Notes under the pieces: generated by a model | Databases searched by the model: none | Told to the model about the DNA's origin: nothing | The model's input: the letters and a program-made list of their open reading frames with translations, nothing else | In this document: piece after piece, positions 237 to 44,812 of the stretch | Layout: every line of letters starts with the position of its first letter | Position numbering within the stretch: position 1 is the first letter of the stretch | Translations under genes and position numbers: made by a program | NCBI RefSeq assembly: GCF_938010505.1 | Contig: NZ_CALLVP010000065.1 | Span: 1 to 60,470 of the forward strand | Source: an uncultured Veillonella sp. | Lineage (GTDB): Bacteria; Bacillota; Negativicutes; Veillonellales; Veillonellaceae | Direction of reading: 5' to 3' | DNA: 60,470 nt

Positions 237-656
237 CTATTGGTTTTGTGTAGTTTGTGGTGCACCTTGACCAGTTGGTTGTTGTGGTACATTACCATTA
301 GGTTGACCACCTGGAAGTGGTTGACCTTGTGGAGGTATTTGACCATTTGAGTCCATACGCCTCCCATTATTTGGTCTCATACCATCTTGATGCATCATTT
401 GATTTTGACCATTTTGGTGCATATGCTTACCATTGTTTGGTCCCATACCACCTTGAGGCATCATTTGATTATTTCCATCCATCATATGTTTATCCATATA
501 CTTATTAGGACCATCATGTCTATGTGGTTTTCTAAACTGTTGTTCATTCGTTTTCATCCATTCACCGAAATTAGGTAAATCGTTAACTGCAAAAGATGTA
601 ACTGCTCCAACAGCACAGATGACTGTAAGAATAGCTGTTATTATAATTCGTCTCAT
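237..656 (-). CDS. Secreted low-complexity Met/Gln/Gly/His/Asn-rich protein
   Basis: SD AAGGAGG; signal peptide MRRIIITAILTVICAVGAVTSFA; internal NQMMxQxGMxPNNG repeats. Confidence 0.85.
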   Translation of the reverse strand: MRRIIITAILTVICAVGAVTSFAVNDLPNFGEWMKTNEQQFRKPHRHDGPNKYMDKHMMDGNNQMMPQGGMGPNNGKHMHQNGQNQMMHQDGMRPNNGRRMDSNGQIPPQGQPLPGGQPNGNVPQQPTGQGAPQTTQNQ

Positions 657-1730: not shown

Positions 1731-2828
1731 TTATTTCGAAGATGCTTGTCCTAATTTAAGCTGTGTGCTCTTCATTTTTCCGTTATGAGTATAGGATATT
1801 AAAATTGTATCTCCAGGGCTCTTAGCATCAATTTGCTCTTTTAATTCGAGTAATGTGGTAATATCCTTACCATCAATTTGCGCAATTGTATCCCCTTCTA
1901 CTATACCTGCTTGTGCTACCGGACCATTAGGATCCAATTGTACAACAAGAAGTCCGTCCCCTTCATAACTTACATTATTACGAGCTGCTGTTTGACGATC
2001 TATCGCCCACACACCAATATAAGGACGAATAACTTTACCATTTTTAATAATAGAATCAACGATTGTCATCGCAGAATTAATTGGAATGGCAAAACCCATT
2101 CCTTCAATCCCCTCTTTAGAGATTTTGGCGCTATTGATACCAATTAACTCTCCGTCTGCATTAATGAGAGCACCACCTGAGTTACCAGGATTAATAGCTG
2201 CATCAGTTTGAATCAATGGGAATCGTTGGCCTTGTTCATCAATTGTACGTGCTAACGCACTAATAACACCAGCGGTAACGGAACCTTTAAACTCTAACCC
2301 CAAAGGATTGCCAATAGCAATTGCGGGCTCACCCACTTGTACGGAATCGGAGTCCCCAATTTTTATAGGTTTAATATCTTTTGGAGGTTTAATTTTTACA
2401 ACCGCTAAATCCGTCTGTGAATCCGAACCTATAACAGTACCCGTCACGGTACTGCCGTCAGATAATGATATCGTAACCTCTCCATTTTTAGCCCCTGCCA
2501 CAACATGTTTATTCGTTACAATATGGCCTTCATTGTCGATAAGGACACCAGATCCAACACCTTCTCCCGCATAGATAGTGCGATTAAAAATATCCTTTTG
2601 GAATACTTGTGTTGTAATCCCTACAACAGCTGGACCAGATTCTTTAACCGCTTGCACTACATAGGTATTACGCGTTTCAGTGATTGGCTTAGTCTGTTTT
2701 GATTGTTCTCTCACATTTGTTGGTTGCGTATTAACAGGGCTACCAAAGAAATAGTATCCGCCCCCTACACCAATTCCCAAAGCAAGAATACAAGCAGCCG
2801 CTGTTTTCTTATATTTTAAAAATTCCAT
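1731..2828 (-). CDS. htrA: HtrA/DegP-family serine protease with PDZ domain
   Basis: N-terminal TM; GSGV, TNKHVV, DLAVVK, GNPLG, QTDAAINPGNSGG motifs; C-terminal PDZ. Confidence 0.95.
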   Translation of the reverse strand: MEFLKYKKTAAACILALGIGVGGGYYFFGSPVNTQPTNVREQSKQTKPITETRNTYVVQAVKESGPAVVGITTQVFQKDIFNRTIYAGEGVGSGVLIDNEGHIVTNKHVVAGAKNGEVTISLSDGSTVTGTVIGSDSQTDLAVVKIKPPKDIKPIKIGDSDSVQVGEPAIAIGNPLGLEFKGSVTAGVISALARTIDEQGQRFPLIQTDAAINPGNSGGALINADGELIGINSAKISKEGIEGMGFAIPINSAMTIVDSIIKNGKVIRPYIGVWAIDRQTAARNNVSYEGDGLLVVQLDPNGPVAQAGIVEGDTIAQIDGKDITTLLELKEQIDAKSPGDTILISYTHNGKMKSTQLKLGQASSK

Positions 2829-3186
2829 GTATATCTCCTTATGTCTGTTCTTATAGTAAGTTACATATCTATTATAACGATTAACACTCTTTATAAATGT
2901 ATTATACTTGTGTATCTATTGTAAATATATACTATAATATAGTATTACTTCATATATTCTAGTATTACTACTACATAACTCACTAGATTAATCACCCTCA
3001 AAAATCAATTTTATAAAATTGATTTTGATGAACCTATTATAGTACTCTAATCTACACAATGCAAGATAACAATTTATAACGAAACCCATAATGATATAAC
3101 TACTGTAAACAATATATTTCGCTCAATAAAAACTTAGAGAATTCAGGAGAAACCACATAAATATGTTCACATCTACACAAATACAT

Positions 3187-3235
3187 AAAAACATAAAGGG
3201 CATTCGCTAGCCGTCGCTAGCAAATGCCCTTTATG
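3187..3235 (-). terminator. Intrinsic terminator
   Basis: CAUAAAGGGCAUUUGCUAGC-GACG-GCUAGCGAAUGCCCUUUAUG followed by UUUUU. Confidence 0.85.
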
Positions 3236-3362
3236 CATATAGTTTGAGAGTGTAAGGACTGTTGAGAGAGAGAGTATATGTGATCTAGATAAGCTTAAGA
3301 GAGAACTTATTAAGAGAGAGAAGTTTAAATATTACTTATCTAGAGTCATAGTCAGCCTTACT
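3187..3362 (-). ncRNA. Candidate ~175-nt sRNA with four UCUCUC motifs
   Basis: -10 TATACT at 3369-3374; nested stems GUAAGG/CCUUAC and UCUAGAUAAG/CUUAUCUAGA; CU repeats in unpaired regions; strong terminator; no listed ORF. Confidence 0.65.
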
Positions 3363-3516
3363 TAAATAAGTATACATGGAATATCTAAACTATCAAAGTA
3401 ACTATATAAACAATTCTTAAATCTTTGATTATATTTCTATAATAAATCTCTACAAACTCATATCCTATCAACAGTCACGAACAACGTGAGTCTAATGTGA
3501 ATATACATTTCAGTTA

Positions 3517-4206
3517 TTAAACAAATTTATAACCTACACCCCATACTGTAATAATATGTTTACTATCGGATGGATTATCTTCAATTTCTTCACGTAAACG
3601 ATTGATATGTACCGCTACAGTAGCATAGTCACCATAGGAATCGAGACCCCATACACGAGAGTATAATTCTTCCTTACTAAATACGATGTCACGGTTACGC
3701 ATCAAGAATTCTAATAATTGGAATTCTTTCTTTTTGAGATGAACTTCTTTTTCATTCACCCATACTTTCATCATCTTAGGATCAAGGCGAATTTCATCGG
3801 ACTGAATAGCATTAGTTTCCATTGCATCGCGCTCTGTCAAACGTTTATATTGCGCCAACATAGCTTTGATTTTTGCAATTAAAACAGATGGAGAAAATGG
3901 TTTTTCAATATAATCATCAGCGCCTACGCCTAAGCCACGGATTTTATCGATATCATCAAGACGAGCGGTTACCATAACGATTGGTACACGAACTTTGTCG
4001 CGAATTTGACGACAAACTTCAAAGCCATCCATTTCTGGCAGCATAACATCAAGAATAATAAGGTCCACAGGAGTATTCAATGCAGCCTCGATACCATCTG
4101 TACCATTAGTCATAATAGTTACATCATAGCCTGCCACCATTAAATAATCACGCTCAATATTGGCAATATCCAAATCGTCTTCAATAATTAAGATATGTTC
4201 ACTCAT
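3517..4206 (-). CDS. OmpR/PhoB-family response regulator
   Basis: Receiver IIEDD...LDVMLP...GADDYIEKPF; wHTH ending HIITVWGVGYKF. Confidence 0.95.
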   Translation of the reverse strand: MSEHILIIEDDLDIANIERDYLMVAGYDVTIMTNGTDGIEAALNTPVDLIILDVMLPEMDGFEVCRQIRDKVRVPIVMVTARLDDIDKIRGLGVGADDYIEKPFSPSVLIAKIKAMLAQYKRLTERDAMETNAIQSDEIRLDPKMMKVWVNEKEVHLKKKEFQLLEFLMRNRDIVFSKEELYSRVWGLDSYGDYATVAVHINRLREEIEDNPSDSKHIITVWGVGYKFV

Positions 4207-5543
4207 GATTCTTCTCCTTGTTTAGGAAACTCTAATATAATGCGTAGACCATGTGGCCTTACATTTTCAATTACAACTCGGCCTTCAAAGATTTCCATAA
4301 TTCGACGAATAATCGACAATCCTAGACCACTTCCTTCTTGTGGGTTCGTACGAGACGAATCCACACGATAGAATGGGCGCATCAGACGCTCTAGAGATTC
4401 TGGTGGTACCCCTGGGCCATCATCACTGATGACACAGTATACAAAATCATCATCACTTGTTACATCGATAACGCAATGACCAATATCGGCCATTTTATAC
4501 TTAGCACTATTATTCAACACATTTTGTAAAACACGTTGTAATAATTGTGGGTTAGCATTGATAAAAGGTGTTTCTGTAGCTATTCGGGCCTTAATCTCAA
4601 GCCCCTTCGATTGATACGGAGCTAAATGATCTTCTACAAAATCACGTACATACTGGCCTAATTCAATTCGCTCAGATGGACGAGATTCTTTTTTGTAGTT
4701 CAACGTTGTTATGAGGAATAGCTCCTCCAACATAGAATCTAAATCATTAGCGCGCTTCAAAATGATACCCATGTATCGTTTTTGTTGCTCTTCCGTTGGT
4801 GCAATACCATCGCGAACACCTTCAGCATAAGCTTTTATAGCCGTTAATGGCGTTCGAATATCATGGGATATACCAGCAAGTAGCTCTTTTTGTTGTTCTT
4901 GTTCCATTTCAATCTGACGATTTGCCATTTCTAACGATTTTGTCATATTTTTAACGTGAATCATGATAAAGCGTGTAACAAATCGATTGATAGCAAAGAA
5001 TGTAACAATAAAGAGCAATATGGAAACTACAATAATATAGAAAGATACGGATTCCATTAAGCTATCACTACCATGAGTAGCGCGCTTAATCGCAATATGG
5101 TATACGTAGGCGTGACGCCCATCATATTTCCGCATTTCATAAACAAAAGTATTGTTGGATTGATACACGATACCCTGTAATTCAGGGTTAACATCGATAA
5201 GACCAACAATGGCAGAAGCACTATAGATTTGTGGGTTGCCATAGTTATACACCATGTTCCCTTGATCAAGTACCTCTACATATACCTCCTTTGGATCGAG
5301 AAGACTATAGCTAGGTTTAACCAAACTATTAATCAAATCATTTTCTAACCCATAAAAGGTAATGGTTTCAGTTATTCGACTGACGCTTTTAAACTGCTGT
5401 TCCTGCTCAATACGCAAATAGTAACCGGCATTAGCCAATATGCGCAAACCTGTAAAGTATAGCAAAAACAAGATAATTGCTATTAAAATAGGTACAACAA
5501 ACAGCACAACATTGGATATCCAAATTCGTATTTGTAAATTCAC
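4203..5543 (-). CDS. Sensor histidine kinase
   Basis: Two TMs; H-box SHDIRTPL; N-box; DDGPG; GSGLGL; ATGA overlap with the regulator; GTG start. Confidence 0.95.
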   Translation of the reverse strand: MNLQIRIWISNVVLFVVPILIAIILFLLYFTGLRILANAGYYLRIEQEQQFKSVSRITETITFYGLENDLINSLVKPSYSLLDPKEVYVEVLDQGNMVYNYGNPQIYSASAIVGLIDVNPELQGIVYQSNNTFVYEMRKYDGRHAYVYHIAIKRATHGSDSLMESVSFYIIVVSILLFIVTFFAINRFVTRFIMIHVKNMTKSLEMANRQIEMEQEQQKELLAGISHDIRTPLTAIKAYAEGVRDGIAPTEEQQKRYMGIILKRANDLDSMLEELFLITTLNYKKESRPSERIELGQYVRDFVEDHLAPYQSKGLEIKARIATETPFINANPQLLQRVLQNVLNNSAKYKMADIGHCVIDVTSDDDFVYCVISDDGPGVPPESLERLMRPFYRVDSSRTNPQEGSGLGLSIIRRIMEIFEGRVVIENVRPHGLRIILEFPKQGEES

Positions 5544-5582
5544 AGGATTACCTCAATATCATTAATAGTAGATACTTCTTAT

Positions 5583-5612
5583 AGTTTACGCTATTTTTAA
5601 TACTTAACGCAA
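5583..5612 (-). promoter_or_regulatory. Putative promoter of the two-component operon
   Basis: Minus-strand TTGCGT-N18-TAAACT about 40 nt upstream of the kinase start. Confidence 0.45.
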
Positions 5613-5628
5613 GTATAATACTCAAAAA

Positions 5629-5670
5629 TTCAATATATTATTCACATTTTCTTCATACACAGTTTATAAT
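5629..5670 (+). promoter_or_regulatory. Putative divergent promoter with 11-bp-phased direct repeats
   Basis: TTCACA-N5-TTCATA-N5-TTTATA overlapping TTCACA-N18-TATAAT. Confidence 0.5.
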
Positions 5671-5675
5671 TGGTA

Positions 5676-5984
5676 GATTATACAAGGGTTCCTCCTCCCT
5701 TTTAATATCTAATATTTCCCATAATAATAATATTTTCACACGCATCCAGGTATCTTATAACGATATGAAACTTGGTCATATCTAACGTTTCATAGATACT
5801 TAGTCTCCTCGCTTAATCAGACTCTCTCTATACTATTTATAAAATAATTTAAAATATAATATATAAAATAACTACTAAATCTCTTCATTTAATACAACGA
5901 AGCACATGCTAGATTATACTATTTCTCCATGAGAATAGTTTAAATTTAGACATAAAAAAAGAGGATTCCTAAGAATCCTCTTTT
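5676..5984 (+). ncRNA. Candidate sRNA with anti-Shine-Dalgarno loops (3' end uncertain)
   Basis: Hairpin loops UUCCUCCU (AAGGG/CCCUU stem), UCCCAU and CCUCGC, followed by CUCUCU; upstream promoter; bidirectional terminator at 5954-5984. Confidence 0.45.
5954..5984. terminator. Bidirectional intrinsic terminator
   Basis: A7-GAGGATTC-CTAA-GAATCCTC-T4. Confidence 0.85.
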
Positions 5985-5994
5985 AGAGTTTAAA

Positions 5995-7347
5995 TTAACG
6001 ACGATTAGCATCGAAGAAGTTAATAGCAACTTCTGGGAACATAGCGTAAGTCAATACGTCTTCGTCAGTGATACCATTGTAGCCTTTAGAAGCTAAATCT
6101 TGACGGTAACCTTCCAATTCAGGTTCGATAAGATCTGCTGGACGGCAAGTGATAGGTTGTTCGTCACCAATAACAGTTTGACGAATTTCGTCAGAAATAG
6201 TACCAGGCAACGCACCATATTTACCGCGTACAAGGTCTTTAACTTCGTTAGGAACCATTTTGTAACGGTCGCCCATCATAACGTTCATCATAGCCATTGT
6301 ACCAACGATTTGGGATGTTGGAGTTACCAATGGAGGGAAACCTAAGTCTTCACGAACGCGTGGCATTTCATCCATAACGTCGAAGAAACGATCGCCCATA
6401 CCCATTTCGTTCAATTGGTTTTGAGTATTAGACAACATACCGCCAGGAATTTGGTAACGACGAACAGCTGGGATTACATCACTAGCTGGTTTCAAGTTAA
6501 ATTCTTCAGCGATTTGTTGTTTAACTTTACGGAAGTGATCAACTAATGGAATGAATTTATCAAGGTCAAGACCAAGATCATATTCAGTACCTTTGAACAT
6601 TTCAATCATAGTTTCAGTAGCTGGTTGGCTAGTTGCATGAGCGAATGGGGAGATAGCAGTATCGATGATATCTACGCCAGCTTTAGCAGCTTCCCAGTAT
6701 GCAGTGCTTGCAAGACCGCAAGTGAAATGGCTATGTAAATCGATTGGCAATTCGCCGAAACGTTTTTTGAAAGTAGAAACCAAATCATACGCATCAGCAG
6801 GGCCTAACAAACCAGACATATCTTTGATACAAAGGGAATCAGTACCCATTTCAACCAAAGTTTCAGCTACTTTCAAGAAGCTTTCAGTTGTGTGAACTGG
6901 AGAAATTGTATATACCATAGCGGATTGAACGTGCGCACCAGCTTTTTTAGAGTACTTAATAGCAGCTTCCATGTTGCGTGGGTCATTCAATGCGTCGAAA
7001 ATACGGATACGGTCGATACCATTTTTAACAGCTGCACCACAGAATGCTTCTACTACATCATCAGAGTAGTGTTTATAGCCCAATAAGTTTTGGCCACGAA
7101 GTAACATTTGTAATGGAGTGTTTTTCAAGTTGGATTTCAATTTGCGAAGGCGTTCCCATGGATCTTCATTCAAGAAACGAAGACAGCTATCATAAGTAGC
7201 ACCGCCCCAACACTCAAGAGCTTCGTAACCGATATCGTCTAAAAGACCAAGTACTGGTTCCATTTGCTCATAACGCATGCGTGTTGCCAAAACAGATTGA
7301 TGACCGTCACGAAGAACGGTTTCGCAAATTCTTAATTTTTTAGCCAT
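5995..7347 (-). CDS. Pyruvate/oxaloacetate carboxyltransferase (OadA/PycB/transcarboxylase 5S-like), no biotinyl domain
   Basis: ETVLRDGHQS, ECWGGATYD, IKDMSG, HSH, QIPGGM, PPLVTPTSQIVG; ends at YAMFPEVA with no EAMKM domain. Confidence 0.9.
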   Translation of the reverse strand: MAKKLRICETVLRDGHQSVLATRMRYEQMEPVLGLLDDIGYEALECWGGATYDSCLRFLNEDPWERLRKLKSNLKNTPLQMLLRGQNLLGYKHYSDDVVEAFCGAAVKNGIDRIRIFDALNDPRNMEAAIKYSKKAGAHVQSAMVYTISPVHTTESFLKVAETLVEMGTDSLCIKDMSGLLGPADAYDLVSTFKKRFGELPIDLHSHFTCGLASTAYWEAAKAGVDIIDTAISPFAHATSQPATETMIEMFKGTEYDLGLDLDKFIPLVDHFRKVKQQIAEEFNLKPASDVIPAVRRYQIPGGMLSNTQNQLNEMGMGDRFFDVMDEMPRVREDLGFPPLVTPTSQIVGTMAMMNVMMGDRYKMVPNEVKDLVRGKYGALPGTISDEIRQTVIGDEQPITCRPADLIEPELEGYRQDLASKGYNGITDEDVLTYAMFPEVAINFFDANRR

Positions 7348-7824
7348 GTTAATCCTCCAAATCGAAATAGTCTGTGTATGTAACTTTATACACCCATCAA
7401 ATAACTATCTCATACCTATTTTTTTTACGATTTTTTTGATGTCTGCTCACACAAGCTAAACACACTGCAAATCGTTAAGACATACTTATATTAGACTACT
7501 TATAGAATTCTTTGTCAACAACTACATTATGCCATTTACTCATAAATTCATGTGTAAAATGATGATTTTTTCGTGATGAAAATCACAAAAAACTGCTAAA
7601 AAGCTAGATTTTAACGTGTATTTTTAATCAAATCATATTCTTTGTAATTTTTCTTTTTAATAAGAAATCAAGGATTATATAGCAATAATTTTTTACTATT
7701 ATCAAAATAATCATCAAACTATATCGGTATTTATAAATGTAGTAATTCGATAAACATCGGTACGCTTATAAGCTCATCAATTTTATTAATAACATAGGTG
7801 ATATGTTTAAATGTATAAACATGC

Positions 7825-7855
7825 AAAAGAACCTGTCCATTTATGGACAGGTTCT
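7825..7855 (-). terminator. Intrinsic terminator
   Basis: AGAACCTGTCCA / TGGACAGGTTCT with A-tract. Confidence 0.75.
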
Positions 7856-7895
7856 GATGTGATCTTTAAAATTCAAGAATCTCCGGATATACAGC

Positions 7896-8222
7896 TTATT
7901 TCTCAGGCTTAACCTTTTTAGGCGCAGTTTCAAGGACAATATTTTTACCATCCCGTTTTACTTGAATGGAAAAGGCCCCTTCCCCTTCTTTAAAATACTC
8001 CATCTTGATATCGAGGAGCATTTTACCAATCATAGTCTCTACCTTTTCCGTTAAGAACTCACGGTAAAATGCATCTTCCTTTTGCTTTGGACTTTGATGA
8101 ACAACCGGTTTCTTAGCAGCCCGTTCCATATCGAGCATAGTATCTTCAAAATTATCTGTATCTTTAAAATTTTTCATCATATCCGCATCGGATAAACCTT
8201 TTTGAATTTTAAACTTTGCCAT
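7896..8222 (-). CDS. Hypothetical protein
   Basis: SD AGGAGA; overlaps the end of the GT9 gene; followed by a terminator. Confidence 0.75.
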   Translation of the reverse strand: MAKFKIQKGLSDADMMKNFKDTDNFEDTMLDMERAAKKPVVHQSPKQKEDAFYREFLTEKVETMIGKMLLDIKMEYFKEGEGAFSIQVKRDGKNIVLETAPKKVKPEK

Positions 8223-9381
8223 GTGTATCTCCTATCAGTTCGAAAATTGCTTTCTTTACACGTACTGGTTCAATACCAGACATACAATATTGATTAGGCT
8301 TAGGACAACGTCGTTTACGACACCCTAAACAATCTAATTCATCATTTACGAGCACCTTAAAGTCCCCCGTCAGAGGGCCCCATAATTTAGGATCTGTAGG
8401 ACCAAAAAGTGCTACTACAGGCTTATTTAAAGCTAAAGCAATATGCAGAGCTCCAGTATCAGCAGTAACTACTACATCGCAACTTTCAATTAAAGCCCCT
8501 AACTCTTGAAGCGTCGTTTTCCCTAACATATTCAGTATAATTTTATCAATGCCCTCATCTGTTAGCGAGTCCATCAATGGTTTGTATTGAGTAGCCTCTT
8601 TAGGGCCACCTAAGCAAACAAAATTTGCTCTATATTGAAGGGATTTAATGAGGGAGTACCATTTTTCCTGAGGCCATTCTTTCGTTGCCCAAGACGTGCC
8701 TAATACAAGCCCAACTCGTAGAGGTGTATCCACCTCCCCACGATTCAAGGAAATGTCGTTATCAATCGTTTTCCACTGTTCTTCTGCCCAGCTCTGTAAA
8801 TTTGATGACACCTGAAAATCCATATGGTACAGCTTATTAGCACTAGATTCATTTAGCGTGCAGTTCTCAACACCATCTTTAGCTAGATTAAGCGGTGTAT
8901 CTAAATGTACATGTTCAGCAACAGCCATTGTTAACAGTTGAGCTACCTCAACATAGCGCTTAATCACATGATCTGTACTAGGCTTTGTTTTATGGTTAGT
9001 AAATAACCAATTCAACTCTTTTGTACCACCAAGGCCAAGTCGAATCGGGGCGTCTGAAGCCAATAGTACCAAACCTGTTATGAGTCGCCCTTGTACATCA
9101 ATGGCTACGTCAAATCTATAAGGTTCTAATTTAGCCTTAAGCTCCCACCACATGCGCCACATTGTAGGGATATGTAGTTTTTTAGAATGTGCCTCGTATA
9201 CATCCCGTTCCCAGGGAATTATTTCATCTACATAGGGATTGCCCTGTAAAAGCTCTACCATACTAGGCGTTACAATCCAATGCAACTTAGCATCAGGATA
9301 CTGTTTCTTAATCCACCGCGCAGCAGGTGTAGCATGCAAAATATCACCTATGTAACTAAGGCGTACAAATAATATATTCAT
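8209..9381 (-). CDS. Glycosyltransferase family 9 (LPS heptosyltransferase-like)
   Basis: ILFVRLSYIGDILHATP, KEWP, DTGALHIA, ALFGPT motifs. Confidence 0.9.
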   Translation of the reverse strand: MNILFVRLSYIGDILHATPAARWIKKQYPDAKLHWIVTPSMVELLQGNPYVDEIIPWERDVYEAHSKKLHIPTMWRMWWELKAKLEPYRFDVAIDVQGRLITGLVLLASDAPIRLGLGGTKELNWLFTNHKTKPSTDHVIKRYVEVAQLLTMAVAEHVHLDTPLNLAKDGVENCTLNESSANKLYHMDFQVSSNLQSWAEEQWKTIDNDISLNRGEVDTPLRVGLVLGTSWATKEWPQEKWYSLIKSLQYRANFVCLGGPKEATQYKPLMDSLTDEGIDKIILNMLGKTTLQELGALIESCDVVVTADTGALHIALALNKPVVALFGPTDPKLWGPLTGDFKVLVNDELDCLGCRKRRCPKPNQYCMSGIEPVRVKKAIFELIGDTHGKV

Positions 9382-18921: not shown

Positions 18922-19007
18922 TGGTGCGGTTGGAGGGACTTGAACCCTCACGAGCGTACGCTCACCACCCCCTCAAGATGGCGTGTCTGCCATTCCACCA
19001 CAACCGC
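18922..19007 (-). tRNA. tRNA-Leu(GAG)
   Basis: Cloverleaf with long variable arm, anticodon GAG, GGTTCAAGTCC, CCA end. Confidence 0.95.
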
Positions 19008-19019
19008 ATGGAATACAAA

Positions 19020-19095
<76 letters not shown>

Positions 19096-19100
19096 ATAAA

Positions 19101-19176
19101 TGGCGACCCCGATCAGATTTGAACTGACGATCTTCGCCGTGACAGGGCGACATGTTAACCGCTACACCACGGGGCC
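19101..19176 (-). tRNA. tRNA-Asp(GTC)
   Basis: 76-nt cloverleaf, anticodon GTC, CCA end. Confidence 0.95.
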
Positions 19177-44721: not shown

Positions 44722-44812
44722 GGAGAGGTGTCCGAGCGGCTGAAGGAGCATGATTGGAAATCATGTGTGCGGTTATCCCGTACCCAGGGTTCAAATCCCT
44801 GTCTCTCCGCCA
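44722..44812 (+). tRNA. tRNA-Ser(GGA)
   Basis: Cloverleaf with long variable arm, anticodon GGA, CCA end. Confidence 0.95.

Follow-up and report, generated by a model that had tools for sequence, protein, structure and literature searches.

A Veillonella small RNA gene between a two-component operon and htrA: conserved structure, invariant CU tracts and a candidate role as a multi-seed anti-Shine-Dalgarno regulator

The window analysed here is a 60,470-nt stretch of Veillonella sp. DNA (contig NZ_CALLVP010000065.1) from a genome, G000, of 2.07 Mb that is 99.99% complete. On its minus strand, between the genes of a two-component system (TCS) and htrA, lies an element predicted to be the gene of a small RNA (sRNA). 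Read in the direction of this strand, the stop codon of the response regulator gene is followed by a direct repeat, a promoter, the 176-nt sRNA stretch (3362..3187) and htrA. The features of the locus are as follows.

4203..5543, minus strand: sensor histidine kinase gene (446 aa), the first of the two-component operon; Pfam HisKA and HATPase_c.
3517..4206, minus strand: OmpR/PhoB-family response regulator gene (229 aa); Pfam Response_reg and Trans_reg_C.
3405..3421, minus strand: direct repeat TTTAAG-AATTG-TTTATA with 11-bp periodicity; candidate site for a response-regulator dimer, centred at about -51 from the predicted start.
3369..3396, minus strand: predicted sRNA promoter, with the -35 TTGATA (3396..3391), a 16-nt spacer and the -10 TATACT (3374..3369); 10/12 matches in a consensus scan.
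3187..3362, minus strand: sRNA of about 175 nt; fold z-score -8.7; covariance-model match at 3187..3361 with 203 bits.
3334..3348, minus strand: 5' arm of the inner stem of the sRNA, pairing with 3294..3281.
3312..3323, minus strand: CU tract 1, CUUCUCUCUCUU, in the apical loop and within the 28-nt core AACUUCUCUCUCUUAAUAAGUUCUCUCU; mean unpaired probability 0.76.
3297..3306, minus strand: CU tract 2, GUUCUCUCUU, in the invariant core; mean unpaired probability 0.70.
3261..3275, minus strand: CU tract 3, ACUCUCUCUCUCAAC, with CACAUAUA before it; mean unpaired probability 0.92.
3237..3253, minus strand: tract 4 with the linker, ACACUCUCAAACUAUAU, a single-stranded segment that joins the outer stem to the terminator; mean unpaired probability 0.87.
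3187..3236, minus strand: intrinsic terminator, a 20-21-bp hairpin (3236..3191) with a U run.
3036..3064, minus strand: htrA's own promoter, TTGCAT-17-TATAAT, conserved upstream of htrA in other loci, also in genomes without the TCS-sRNA block.
1731..2828, minus strand: gene of an HtrA/DegP-family serine protease (365 aa); Pfam Trypsin_2 and PDZ.

The kinase and regulator genes overlap by 4 nt, and neither product reaches an NCBIfam equivalog cut-off. The recognition-helix region of the regulator is ATVAVHINRLREEI. The hairpin of the sRNA is the only terminator downstream of the TCS operon, and the htrA gene begins 358 nt past it. The htrA promoter falls below the threshold of the scan, its -35 matching at only 3/6 positions.

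The 176-nt RNA has a minimum free energy of -59.1 kcal/mol, compared with -28.2 ± 3.6 kcal/mol for 200 dinucleotide shuffles, none of which was as good (z = -8.7). The outer stem is formed by GUAAGGCUG (3361..3353) and CAG-U-CCUUAC (3261..3252). The inner stem has 11 + 3 bp (3348..3334 with 3294..3281), of which RNAalifold keeps ten pairs as a block, the large apical loop holds a 5-bp mini-helix, and the loop of the terminator is GACG. The outer stem, the 10-bp inner stem and the 20-bp terminator stem of the original prediction, which was made from the sequence of the window, fold as it claimed. That prediction also counted four UCUCUC motifs. Three are present, in the tracts at 3323..3312, 3306..3297 and 3275..3261, whereas the fourth is only a shorter CUCUC inside 3253..3237. 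All four CU tracts are predicted to be unpaired, with mean probabilities of 0.70-0.92. Four of the six CTCTCTC matches in the window fall within the 176-nt element. The trinucleotide CAU lies 3 nt upstream of CU tract 3; this tract and the preceding CACAUAUA make up a possible anti-Shine-Dalgarno (anti-SD) plus anti-AUG site. The GGA motif is absent from the 176-nt sequence.

Terminator-like sites were found twice where 0.2 were expected, and the only ones in 2700..3700 belong to the sRNA. The sole open reading frame (ORF) in the sRNA is 21 aa long, runs through the terminator hairpin and has no SD sequence. In the alignment, its residues 5-13 differ completely between clades, and it is therefore not a peptide gene. 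The checks against Rfam and for homologues that had been proposed for this RNA were both run. In Rfam 15 no family reaches its gathering score for the sRNA, and only tRNAs reach it in the window. When 2800..3600 was searched at E values up to 10, the best match had 21 bits, no streptococcal family appeared, and the matches were at chance level; that to Enterococcus sRNA_1300 had 14.9 bits against a cut-off of 48.8. Homologues are conserved in Veillonella genomes, as described below.

By BLASTN, the sRNA was detected in 18/24 other genomes of the genus and in none of 16 genomes that represent other genera of the order. With a covariance model of 14 sequences, one strong match was obtained in 74 of 81 other genomes of the genus (75/82 with the window's own). 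Elsewhere in the family the model gave no convincing match: none in three genera (0/25, 0/1 and 0/1) and, in one of 12 genomes of another genus, a match of 33.6 bits. In a genome collection of 185,579 species, 67 stretches contain the exact 28-nt core AACTTCTCTCTCTTAAYAAGTTCTCTCT, 66 of them in Veillonella records and one in that of an "uncultured bacterium". The sRNA is found only in Veillonella and essentially nowhere else in the family. It is single-copy in G000, where the covariance model detects no paralogue.

Alignments between species start in the regulator gene and end at the U run of the sRNA. In six loci at increasing distance, the sRNA is 0.64-0.93 identical to the copy in the window and the final 600 nt of the regulator gene 0.77-0.92, but the 100 nt past the terminator only 0.37-0.53.

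For the 14 sequences, RNAalifold predicted 47 pairs, 12 of them with compensatory changes. In the model alignment of 30 sequences (27 distinct), 97.7% of the cells are paired and 20/47 pairs change on both sides. None of 500 shuffles reached these covariation values, and sliding the partners by 1-3 columns left only 2-3 double-change pairs. The signal lies in the inner stem, where 8 of 10 pairs change on both sides in the 27 distinct sequences, and in the terminator, where 9/20 pairs do so and 99.8% of the cells are paired. The sequence of the mini-helix never varies and hence gives no covariation signal.

The unpaired parts are the most conserved segments of the sRNA. CU tract 1 is invariant in the 27 distinct sequences, and the spacer of the core shows a single U/C change. 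A 25-nt stretch of the linker, UCCUUACACUCUCAAACUAUAUGCA, is identical in 63/67 loci, each of the other four having one substitution. It had been proposed that variation of the CU tracts like that of neutral microsatellites would speak against the sRNA. Such variation is seen in tract 3 only: its (CU)n measures 9 nt in 38 of the 67 loci, 11 nt in 25, 7-8 nt in three and 13 nt in one, so that it slips in a microsatellite-like manner, yet it is present in every locus.

The hexamer TATACT is invariant in 17/17 distinct promoter sequences. With 8 promoter-like hexamer pairs in the region against an expected 7.1, there is no enrichment, and the promoter call therefore rests on conservation. As to the promoter originally proposed, TTTAAG-N5-TTTATA and TTTAGA-N9-TATACT are both present. 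However, the -35, of sigma-70-like type, is TTGATA, 16 nt from TATACT, and not TTTAGA; the conserved TTTAGA (3389..3384) lies inside the 16-nt spacer, 9 nt before TATACT. The outer stem starts 6-9 nt past TATACT in all three clades, and on this ground the sRNA would start at A3362 or G3361.

A TTTAxx-N5-TTTAxx repeat is located exactly 30 nt upstream of TATACT in 65/67 Veillonella loci, and in the other two it is cut or absent. Its position is kept across three diverged clades, although the sequence differs between them. In the 65 loci the first half-site is TTTAAG (30), TTTAAA (21), TTTAAC (7) or TTTATA (7), and the second is TTTATA in all but one locus, which has TTTAAA. In the window, TTTAA-N6-TTTATA occurs twice where 0.25 matches were expected. 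An 11-bp-phased repeat near -51 is what an OmpR-family dimer would bind, and the response regulator encoded next door is a candidate activator of transcription from the sRNA promoter. One clade has a degenerate -35 (TTTATT), which suggests that the promoter depends on an activator.

The sRNA is closely linked to the TCS. The 3' end of the regulator gene is directly upstream of it in all 18 aligned loci, at a distance of 144-156 nt in the seven loci measured. Five of the seven sRNA-less genomes of the genus were examined, three of the five being 99% complete. An orthologous kinase is absent from all five; the best kinase matches, in two of them, are only 31-35% identical and cover the catalytic core only. 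Four of the five keep htrA, at 58-78% identity. In two sRNA-less genomes, htrA directly follows oadA, the oxaloacetate-decarboxylase alpha gene, which precedes the TCS in the window, and the unfiltered covariance model finds nothing upstream of htrA there. This means that the kinase, the regulator and the sRNA form one insertion/deletion block of about 2.8 kb between oadA and htrA. The block comes and goes while htrA stays with its own promoter, which argues for a functional TCS-sRNA module. Co-inheritance of neighbours is no proof of regulation, and control of the sRNA by the TCS is suggested rather than demonstrated by it.

What is observed here, namely gene boundaries set by conservation, a structure, a distribution and a linkage to the TCS, describes what is very probably a real sRNA gene, discrete and structured. 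Its prediction as a stand-alone structured RNA at this place on the minus strand is supported by the conservation from the promoter to the U run, the covariation, the invariant CU tracts and the separate promoter of htrA.

A second RNA of G000 shares the motifs of the sRNA. This sibling (contig C129, 1146-1295, plus strand; locus L078) was found on the opposite strand of GA-rich sites complementary to the window RNA. After a -10 of TGTACACT type come a 5' hairpin, a second one with the loop ACAUAUACUCUCUCUCUCC, the single-stranded GUUCUCUCUCAACGCUAUAAA and a terminator, three hairpins in all. The matching motifs of the window RNA are CACAUAUACUCUCUCUCUCAAC, AAGUUCUCUCU and, before its own terminator, CUCUCAAACUAUAU. 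The sibling lies downstream of a tag-like glycosylase ORF, with the invariant GTTAACAATAGTTTT upstream of it, and is present in 60/81 genomes of the genus; six of its 32 pairs covary. It has no Rfam match. Since the covariance model of the window sRNA does not match it either, the two are called motif-sharing and not homologous. Two unlinked RNAs with the same seeds would fit either common targets or a common protein partner.

Two further regions bear similar motifs. The first is an intergenic region of about 510 nt (contig C66, 510-1020; locus L206), matched in 68/81 genomes of the genus. It is 92-99% conserved in about 60 of the 68, and the rest are partial matches at 80-83%. In it, a TATACT hexamer is followed by AUAUACUCUCUCUCAC, and a strong terminator lies at about 838-886. 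The region has no Rfam match and may be a third CU-motif RNA. The second is a CUCUCUCU tract followed by a terminator hairpin at 40-126 of the window (minus strand), just downstream of a 139-aa ORF (237..656). This could be an RNA derived from a 3' untranslated region (3'UTR) that shares the seed of the sRNA.

How such an RNA might act depends on the available partners. Hfq (PF17209), CsrA (PF02599) and ProQ were not found in the 99.99%-complete genome, whereas the control genomes were matched (five of them for Hfq). A KhpB/Jag homologue is encoded. It had been suggested that the RNA sponges CsrA in the manner of CsrB. This found no support, because the genome lacks CsrA and the RNA lacks GGA, and what is left is Hfq-independent base pairing of the kind known in Gram-positive bacteria. 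Pairing of the CU tracts with AG-rich ribosome-binding sites, the other original suggestion, is plausible, and a protein partner other than CsrA may also exist. It should be mentioned that (CU)n complements GAGAG-type sequences and not the canonical AGGAGG, so that it would select a subset of ribosome-binding sites.

Possible target sites were sought in a crude set of 1465 ORFs picked by an SD-based rule. GAGAGAG or AGAGAGA occurs between -35 and +9 of 12 ORFs in this set, and GGAGAGA between -25 and +3 in 26/1459 gene calls. A hydrophobic N-terminal 12-mer, indicating a signal peptide or a membrane helix, is found in 14/26 GGAGAGA genes (54%) and in 336/1433 of the rest (23%; Fisher p = 0.0009). 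Among the 38 purine 7-mers tested, each present in at least 15 genes, this association is the strongest. Genes with AGGAGG show no hydrophobic bias (75/352 versus 275/1107).

The candidate targets include a ShlB/FhaC-type (TpsB) outer-membrane transporter at C111, 52866, an OppC-like permease at C35, 11128, and a DUF805 membrane protein. The TpsB orthologues keep GGAGAGG rather than GGAGAGA, which weakens the case for a conserved site. A secreted protein of 191 aa that belongs to no family, with the leader site AAGAGAGUAGGAGAGAGAAUAUG, was ranked sixth in the duplex scan; three of its relatives keep GGAGAGA, and two of these have kept an upstream GAGA, too. These secreted proteins (C38, 3070-3645, and relatives at loci L203-L205) have no Pfam domain, and GGAGAGA is found in their leaders, in most cases downstream of a further GA-rich site. 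In G000 the gene is just upstream of the tracrRNA/cas9 locus, and in another genome a paralogue is located about 1.5 kb from the sibling sRNA.

Two candidate targets were rejected. An acyltransferase gene (contig C133) offers the linker a perfect 12-nt site, but the gene was not found in 5/5 other genomes and thus cannot explain the invariant linker. Feedback on the TCS through a GA tract at 5829 was dropped, as this tract is absent from the approximately 310 nt upstream of the kinase gene in 6/7 other loci. The leader of the kinase gene has other features of its own. It is about 360 nt long (5544-5950, minus strand), follows a terminator at about 5982..5953, and contains the GA tract (AGAGAGAG), very short ORFs preceded by strong SD-like sequences, and, near 5912, a TATAAT.

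From these results a mechanism can be proposed. The sRNA would be transcribed from its own promoter just downstream of the OmpR-family two-component operon, and this promoter is probably activated by the neighbouring response regulator on the TTTAxx-N5-TTTAxx repeat near -51. Since the hairpin of the sRNA is the only terminator there, some of the RNA may also come from read-through of the operon. The 5' stem and the long 3' terminator hairpin seem to keep the four pyrimidine tracts single-stranded, two of them in the apical loop, a third in an internal loop and the last in the linker that leads to the terminator. The redundant (CU)n seeds might pair with GA-type SD regions, GGAGAGA rather than AGGAGG, and block the initiation of translation without Hfq, ProQ or CsrA. 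The sRNA could in this way form the post-transcriptional arm of an envelope-related response, adjoining the quality-control protease gene htrA; an envelope role is considered because GA-type SD sites are over-represented on genes of exported and membrane proteins. The unlinked sibling with the same seeds probably shares targets.

On balance, we lean towards the view that the sRNA is a Veillonella-specific, trans-acting, TCS-linked, Hfq-independent, multi-seed anti-SD regulator; its start, its regulator, its pairing and its targets are deduced from sequence.

Several observations weigh against this view. The outer stem covaries little: four of its nine pairs are invariant in the 27 distinct sequences, and two of its top three pairs are unpaired in 6-7 of them. 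TTTAA-N6-TTTATA has 17 loose matches in G000, none of them in a comparable promoter setting. A box common to the sRNA, htrA and sibling promoters was given up, for none survives comparison between clades. One clade has AATTGTT in both its sRNA promoter and its htrA promoter. In another clade the sRNA promoter lacks this sequence, and part of it occurs at htrA in TCS-less genomes. The TTTATA-like hexamer of the sibling is 48 nt and not 30 nt from the -10, and is unconserved. In addition, an invariance over 25-28 nt exceeds the need of a 6-9-nt seed, and it also fits a protein-binding surface or one long conserved partner.

The evidence on targets is weak as well. The gene calls are crude, and the p value of the GGAGAGA enrichment lies anywhere between 0.001 and 0.13, depending on the hydrophobicity threshold. 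Purine-rich ribosome-binding sites will pair with any tract of pyrimidines. The SD sequence of htrA is GGAGA plus a variable base, with no conserved GAGAG. Such evidence is circumstantial, and the target genes named above are leads and not findings.

Finally, public RNA data bear on the origin of the transcript. Nineteen RNA runs contain part of the window. Four were examined, and all of these are assembled contigs from relatives, 90-99% alike, which inform on the continuity of the sequence only, and not on the start, end, strand or level of a transcript. In 3/4 the contigs span the regulator gene, the sRNA and beyond. One 241-nt contig with a depth of 2.3 covers 3187..3402 and 25 further letters. 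The sRNA may be made only by read-through from the operon.

Comparison with known systems helps to place the anti-SD reading. LhrC1-5 of Listeria monocytogenes are described as strictly dependent on LisRK and induced by envelope stress. Of their three CU-rich UCCC sites, which are redundant, one lies in a loop, one in a single-stranded stretch and one in the terminator, and these sites pair with the SD region of surface-protein mRNA; Hfq is dispensable, and the responsive promoter element lies upstream of about -53 (PMC4132741). The Veillonella sRNA likewise has redundant unpaired CU tracts, a TCS next door, no Hfq and a repeat near -51. On the other hand, it has no sequence or structure homology to LhrC (no Rfam match). 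Its seeds are (CU)n, none with UCCC, and its terminator loop is GACG. It is about 175 nt long compared with 111-114 nt, and exists as one copy with a motif-sharing sibling instead of five near-identical copies. Its gene is embedded in a TCS-htrA locus, its host is a diderm Firmicute, and its regulation and targets are predictions.

The csRNAs of Streptococcus are driven by CiaR on NTTAAG-N5-TTTAAG, 10 nt upstream of the -10 and with an invariable final G, and carry anti-SD and anti-AUG sequences in unpaired regions (PMC3091779). CiaRH is also reported to control htrA (PMC10197876). The sRNA resembles them in its hexamer repeat with a 5-nt spacer, the unpaired pyrimidine tracts, the CAU before tract 3 and the neighbouring htrA. 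The repeat was originally given the name "CiaR-like box". The repeat is real and its position conserved. However, it lacks the features that define a CiaR site. The repeat lies 30 nt and not 10 nt from the -10, and the G of the half-site is absent from the second half-site in 65/65 loci and present in the first in only 30/65. The recognition helix is also different: CiaR has VVEVYVSK(V/I)RKKL (PMC3091779, Table 1), and by eye the regulator helix TVAVHINRLREEI is identical to that of CiaR, VVEVYVSKVRKKL, at 3/13 positions. No csRNA family of Rfam matches, and as to the pairing feature of csRNAs, the CU tracts are unpaired but complement GAGAG-type sites and not the canonical AGGAGG.

Redundant pyrimidine-rich motifs in loops and linkers also mask G-rich SD sequences, independently of Hfq, in the case of RsaE/RoxS of Staphylococcus and Bacillus. 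The regulators of RsaE/RoxS and their metabolic regulon differ from those of the Veillonella sRNA. Their motifs are C-rich (UCCC/CCCC) and those of Veillonella alternating CU, and there is no Rfam match. The UCCC motif of RsaE is mentioned in the Listeria study (PMC4132741). In Proteobacteria, the envelope-stress sRNAs MicA, RybB, MicL and CpxQ are described as lowering the synthesis of envelope proteins alongside induction of a DegP/HtrA-type protease (PMC4102768, PMC4817254). The Veillonella gene is similar to these in its location between a TCS and htrA, the outer membrane of its host and a TpsB/ShlB candidate target. The four proteobacterial sRNAs depend on Hfq, whereas Hfq is absent here; the RNAs are not homologous, and a connection with envelope stress is deduced from the gene neighbourhood and a modest enrichment.

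Our reading is that the sRNA would work like LhrC or the csRNAs while belonging to neither, and would represent a new family. Masking of ribosome-binding sites by redundant pyrimidine seeds under TCS control has precedents in Listeria, Streptococcus and Staphylococcus. The literature searched contained no paper on a regulatory sRNA of Veillonella and yielded nothing on envelope control in diderm Firmicutes. A screen of V. parvula reports 74 intergenic regions and eleven unnamed "HRC-18" motifs (Brewer et al. 2021, PMC8632094). One of these motifs could be the sRNA of the window, which would lower the novelty of the discovery and not that of the interpretation. The available part of PMC7160235 concerns other RNAs.

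The sRNA is thus a well-bounded, covariation-backed and genus-wide candidate beside a TCS and the main periplasmic quality-control protease. It offers a handle on the signal sensed by an orphan TCS, on sRNA regulation without the classical chaperones, and on the GA-type SD sequence as a regulon tag for exported proteins. It would be a first concrete entry to sRNA regulation, possibly to envelope-stress signalling, in a diderm Firmicute without Hfq, ProQ and CsrA.

A wider interpretation is tentative, and we think it rather doubtful as a whole. Veillonella, an outer-membrane Firmicute, might possess a self-contained envelope-stress cassette of kinase, regulator and sRNA beside htrA. The sRNA and one or more unlinked siblings with the same (CU)n seeds would selectively silence mRNAs with a GGAGAGA SD sequence, enriched for exported, membrane and outer-membrane proteins such as TpsB. 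The cassette would then be an Hfq-free, independently evolved counterpart of the sRNA arms of the proteobacterial sigmaE and Cpx responses. If true, a Shine-Dalgarno "dialect" would mark a regulon.

Instead of pairing with mRNA, the CU tracts might dock a pyrimidine-preferring protein, such as the KH-domain proteins KhpA/KhpB, ribosomal protein S1 or a cold-shock protein, which would be titrated or delivered by the RNA. This sponge model accounts for the display of four similar motifs in loops and linkers, for an invariance that is longer than a seed, and for the presence of the same motifs in the sibling; the KhpB/Jag homologue of the genome would be at hand. CsrB and RsmZ are similar in that one short motif is repeated in unpaired positions. 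These sponges, however, carry GGA for CsrA, and both the motif and the classical partner are missing here, as are Hfq and ProQ. No protein of such specificity was identified in the analysis. Furthermore, sponges of the CsrB type vary in repeat number, whereas the motif copy number of the Veillonella sRNA is fixed and conservation is as high beside the tracts as within them. We therefore regard a sponge as unlikely.

Slightly less likely still is that the region is merely a structured 3'UTR and terminator of the kinase-regulator mRNA, maybe processed to a stable fragment, with no start at about 3362. The lack of a terminator between the regulator stop codon and the element, the constant distance of 144-156 nt from this codon, and the contigs of relatives that run unbroken through both in 3/4 runs (a matter of sequence continuity only) agree with it. 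It does not explain why the -10 hexamer is invariant in 17/17 distinct sequences, or why the upstream repeat is fixed in position across clades whose surroundings have diverged to 0.42-0.66 identity. The outer stem begins 6-9 nt past the -10 in three clades, as expected of a primary 5' end. A -10 of TGTAYACT type is likewise found at the unlinked sibling, whose upstream neighbour is another gene.

A cis-acting leader or attenuator of htrA, with transcription from 3362 and a hairpin that is read through conditionally to control the protease gene, is very improbable. The element and htrA are on the same strand in strict synteny, an htrA-type ORF being next after the sRNA in 17/17 loci examined. 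Nevertheless, the 20-21-bp hairpin leaves no evident alternative pairing, and 100-360 nt of unconserved spacer precede htrA. The promoter of htrA is its own and conserved, and gene and promoter persist without the element in TCS-less genomes; the coming and going of the block, as described above, argues against a leader.

Hardly credible is a role as an RNA related to clustered regularly interspaced short palindromic repeats (CRISPR), in which base pairing of the linker ACUCUCAAAC to nt 1-10 of the type II repeat GUUUGAGAGU of this genome would disturb the pairing of crRNA with tracrRNA: an 11-nt match to several repeats of an array of 25-26 repeats at 66-nt spacing, a 17-nt perfect match at one spacer-repeat junction (C38, 11657) and an orientation like that of the anti-repeat speak for it, whereas the repeat is found in 17/82 genomes of the genus against 75/82 for the sRNA, the linker is identical in 63/67 loci whatever their CRISPR content, a 24-nt repeat-like stretch beside cas9 (C38, 3980-4003) marks the likely real tracrRNA, and a 17-mer match in 4 Mb is expected about 0.03 times by a rough estimate, the repeat merely multiplying the 11-mer. 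The complementarity is probably due to chance. Identity of the sRNA with the tracrRNA itself was also considered and rejected: only 10-11 nt are complementary to the repeat, the gene is not beside cas9, and the sRNA does not co-occur with the array. The type II CRISPR-Cas locus of G000 extends over 3900-11900 of contig C38, with a Cas9-sized ORF of 1406 aa (4042..8259) and an array of 36-nt repeats from 10212.

Two minor features of the window may be added. Just past the promoter of htrA there is a perfect 26-nt palindrome, AAAATCAATTTTATAAAATTGATTTT (3001-3026, minus strand). A similar palindrome recurs in other loci, among them those of two genomes that have no TCS-sRNA block, and the feature could be an operator or a leader hairpin of htrA. 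The tRNA genes, which are the sole Rfam matches in the window, comprise a cluster of three at 18925-19176 (minus strand) and a separate one at 44722-44809 (plus strand).

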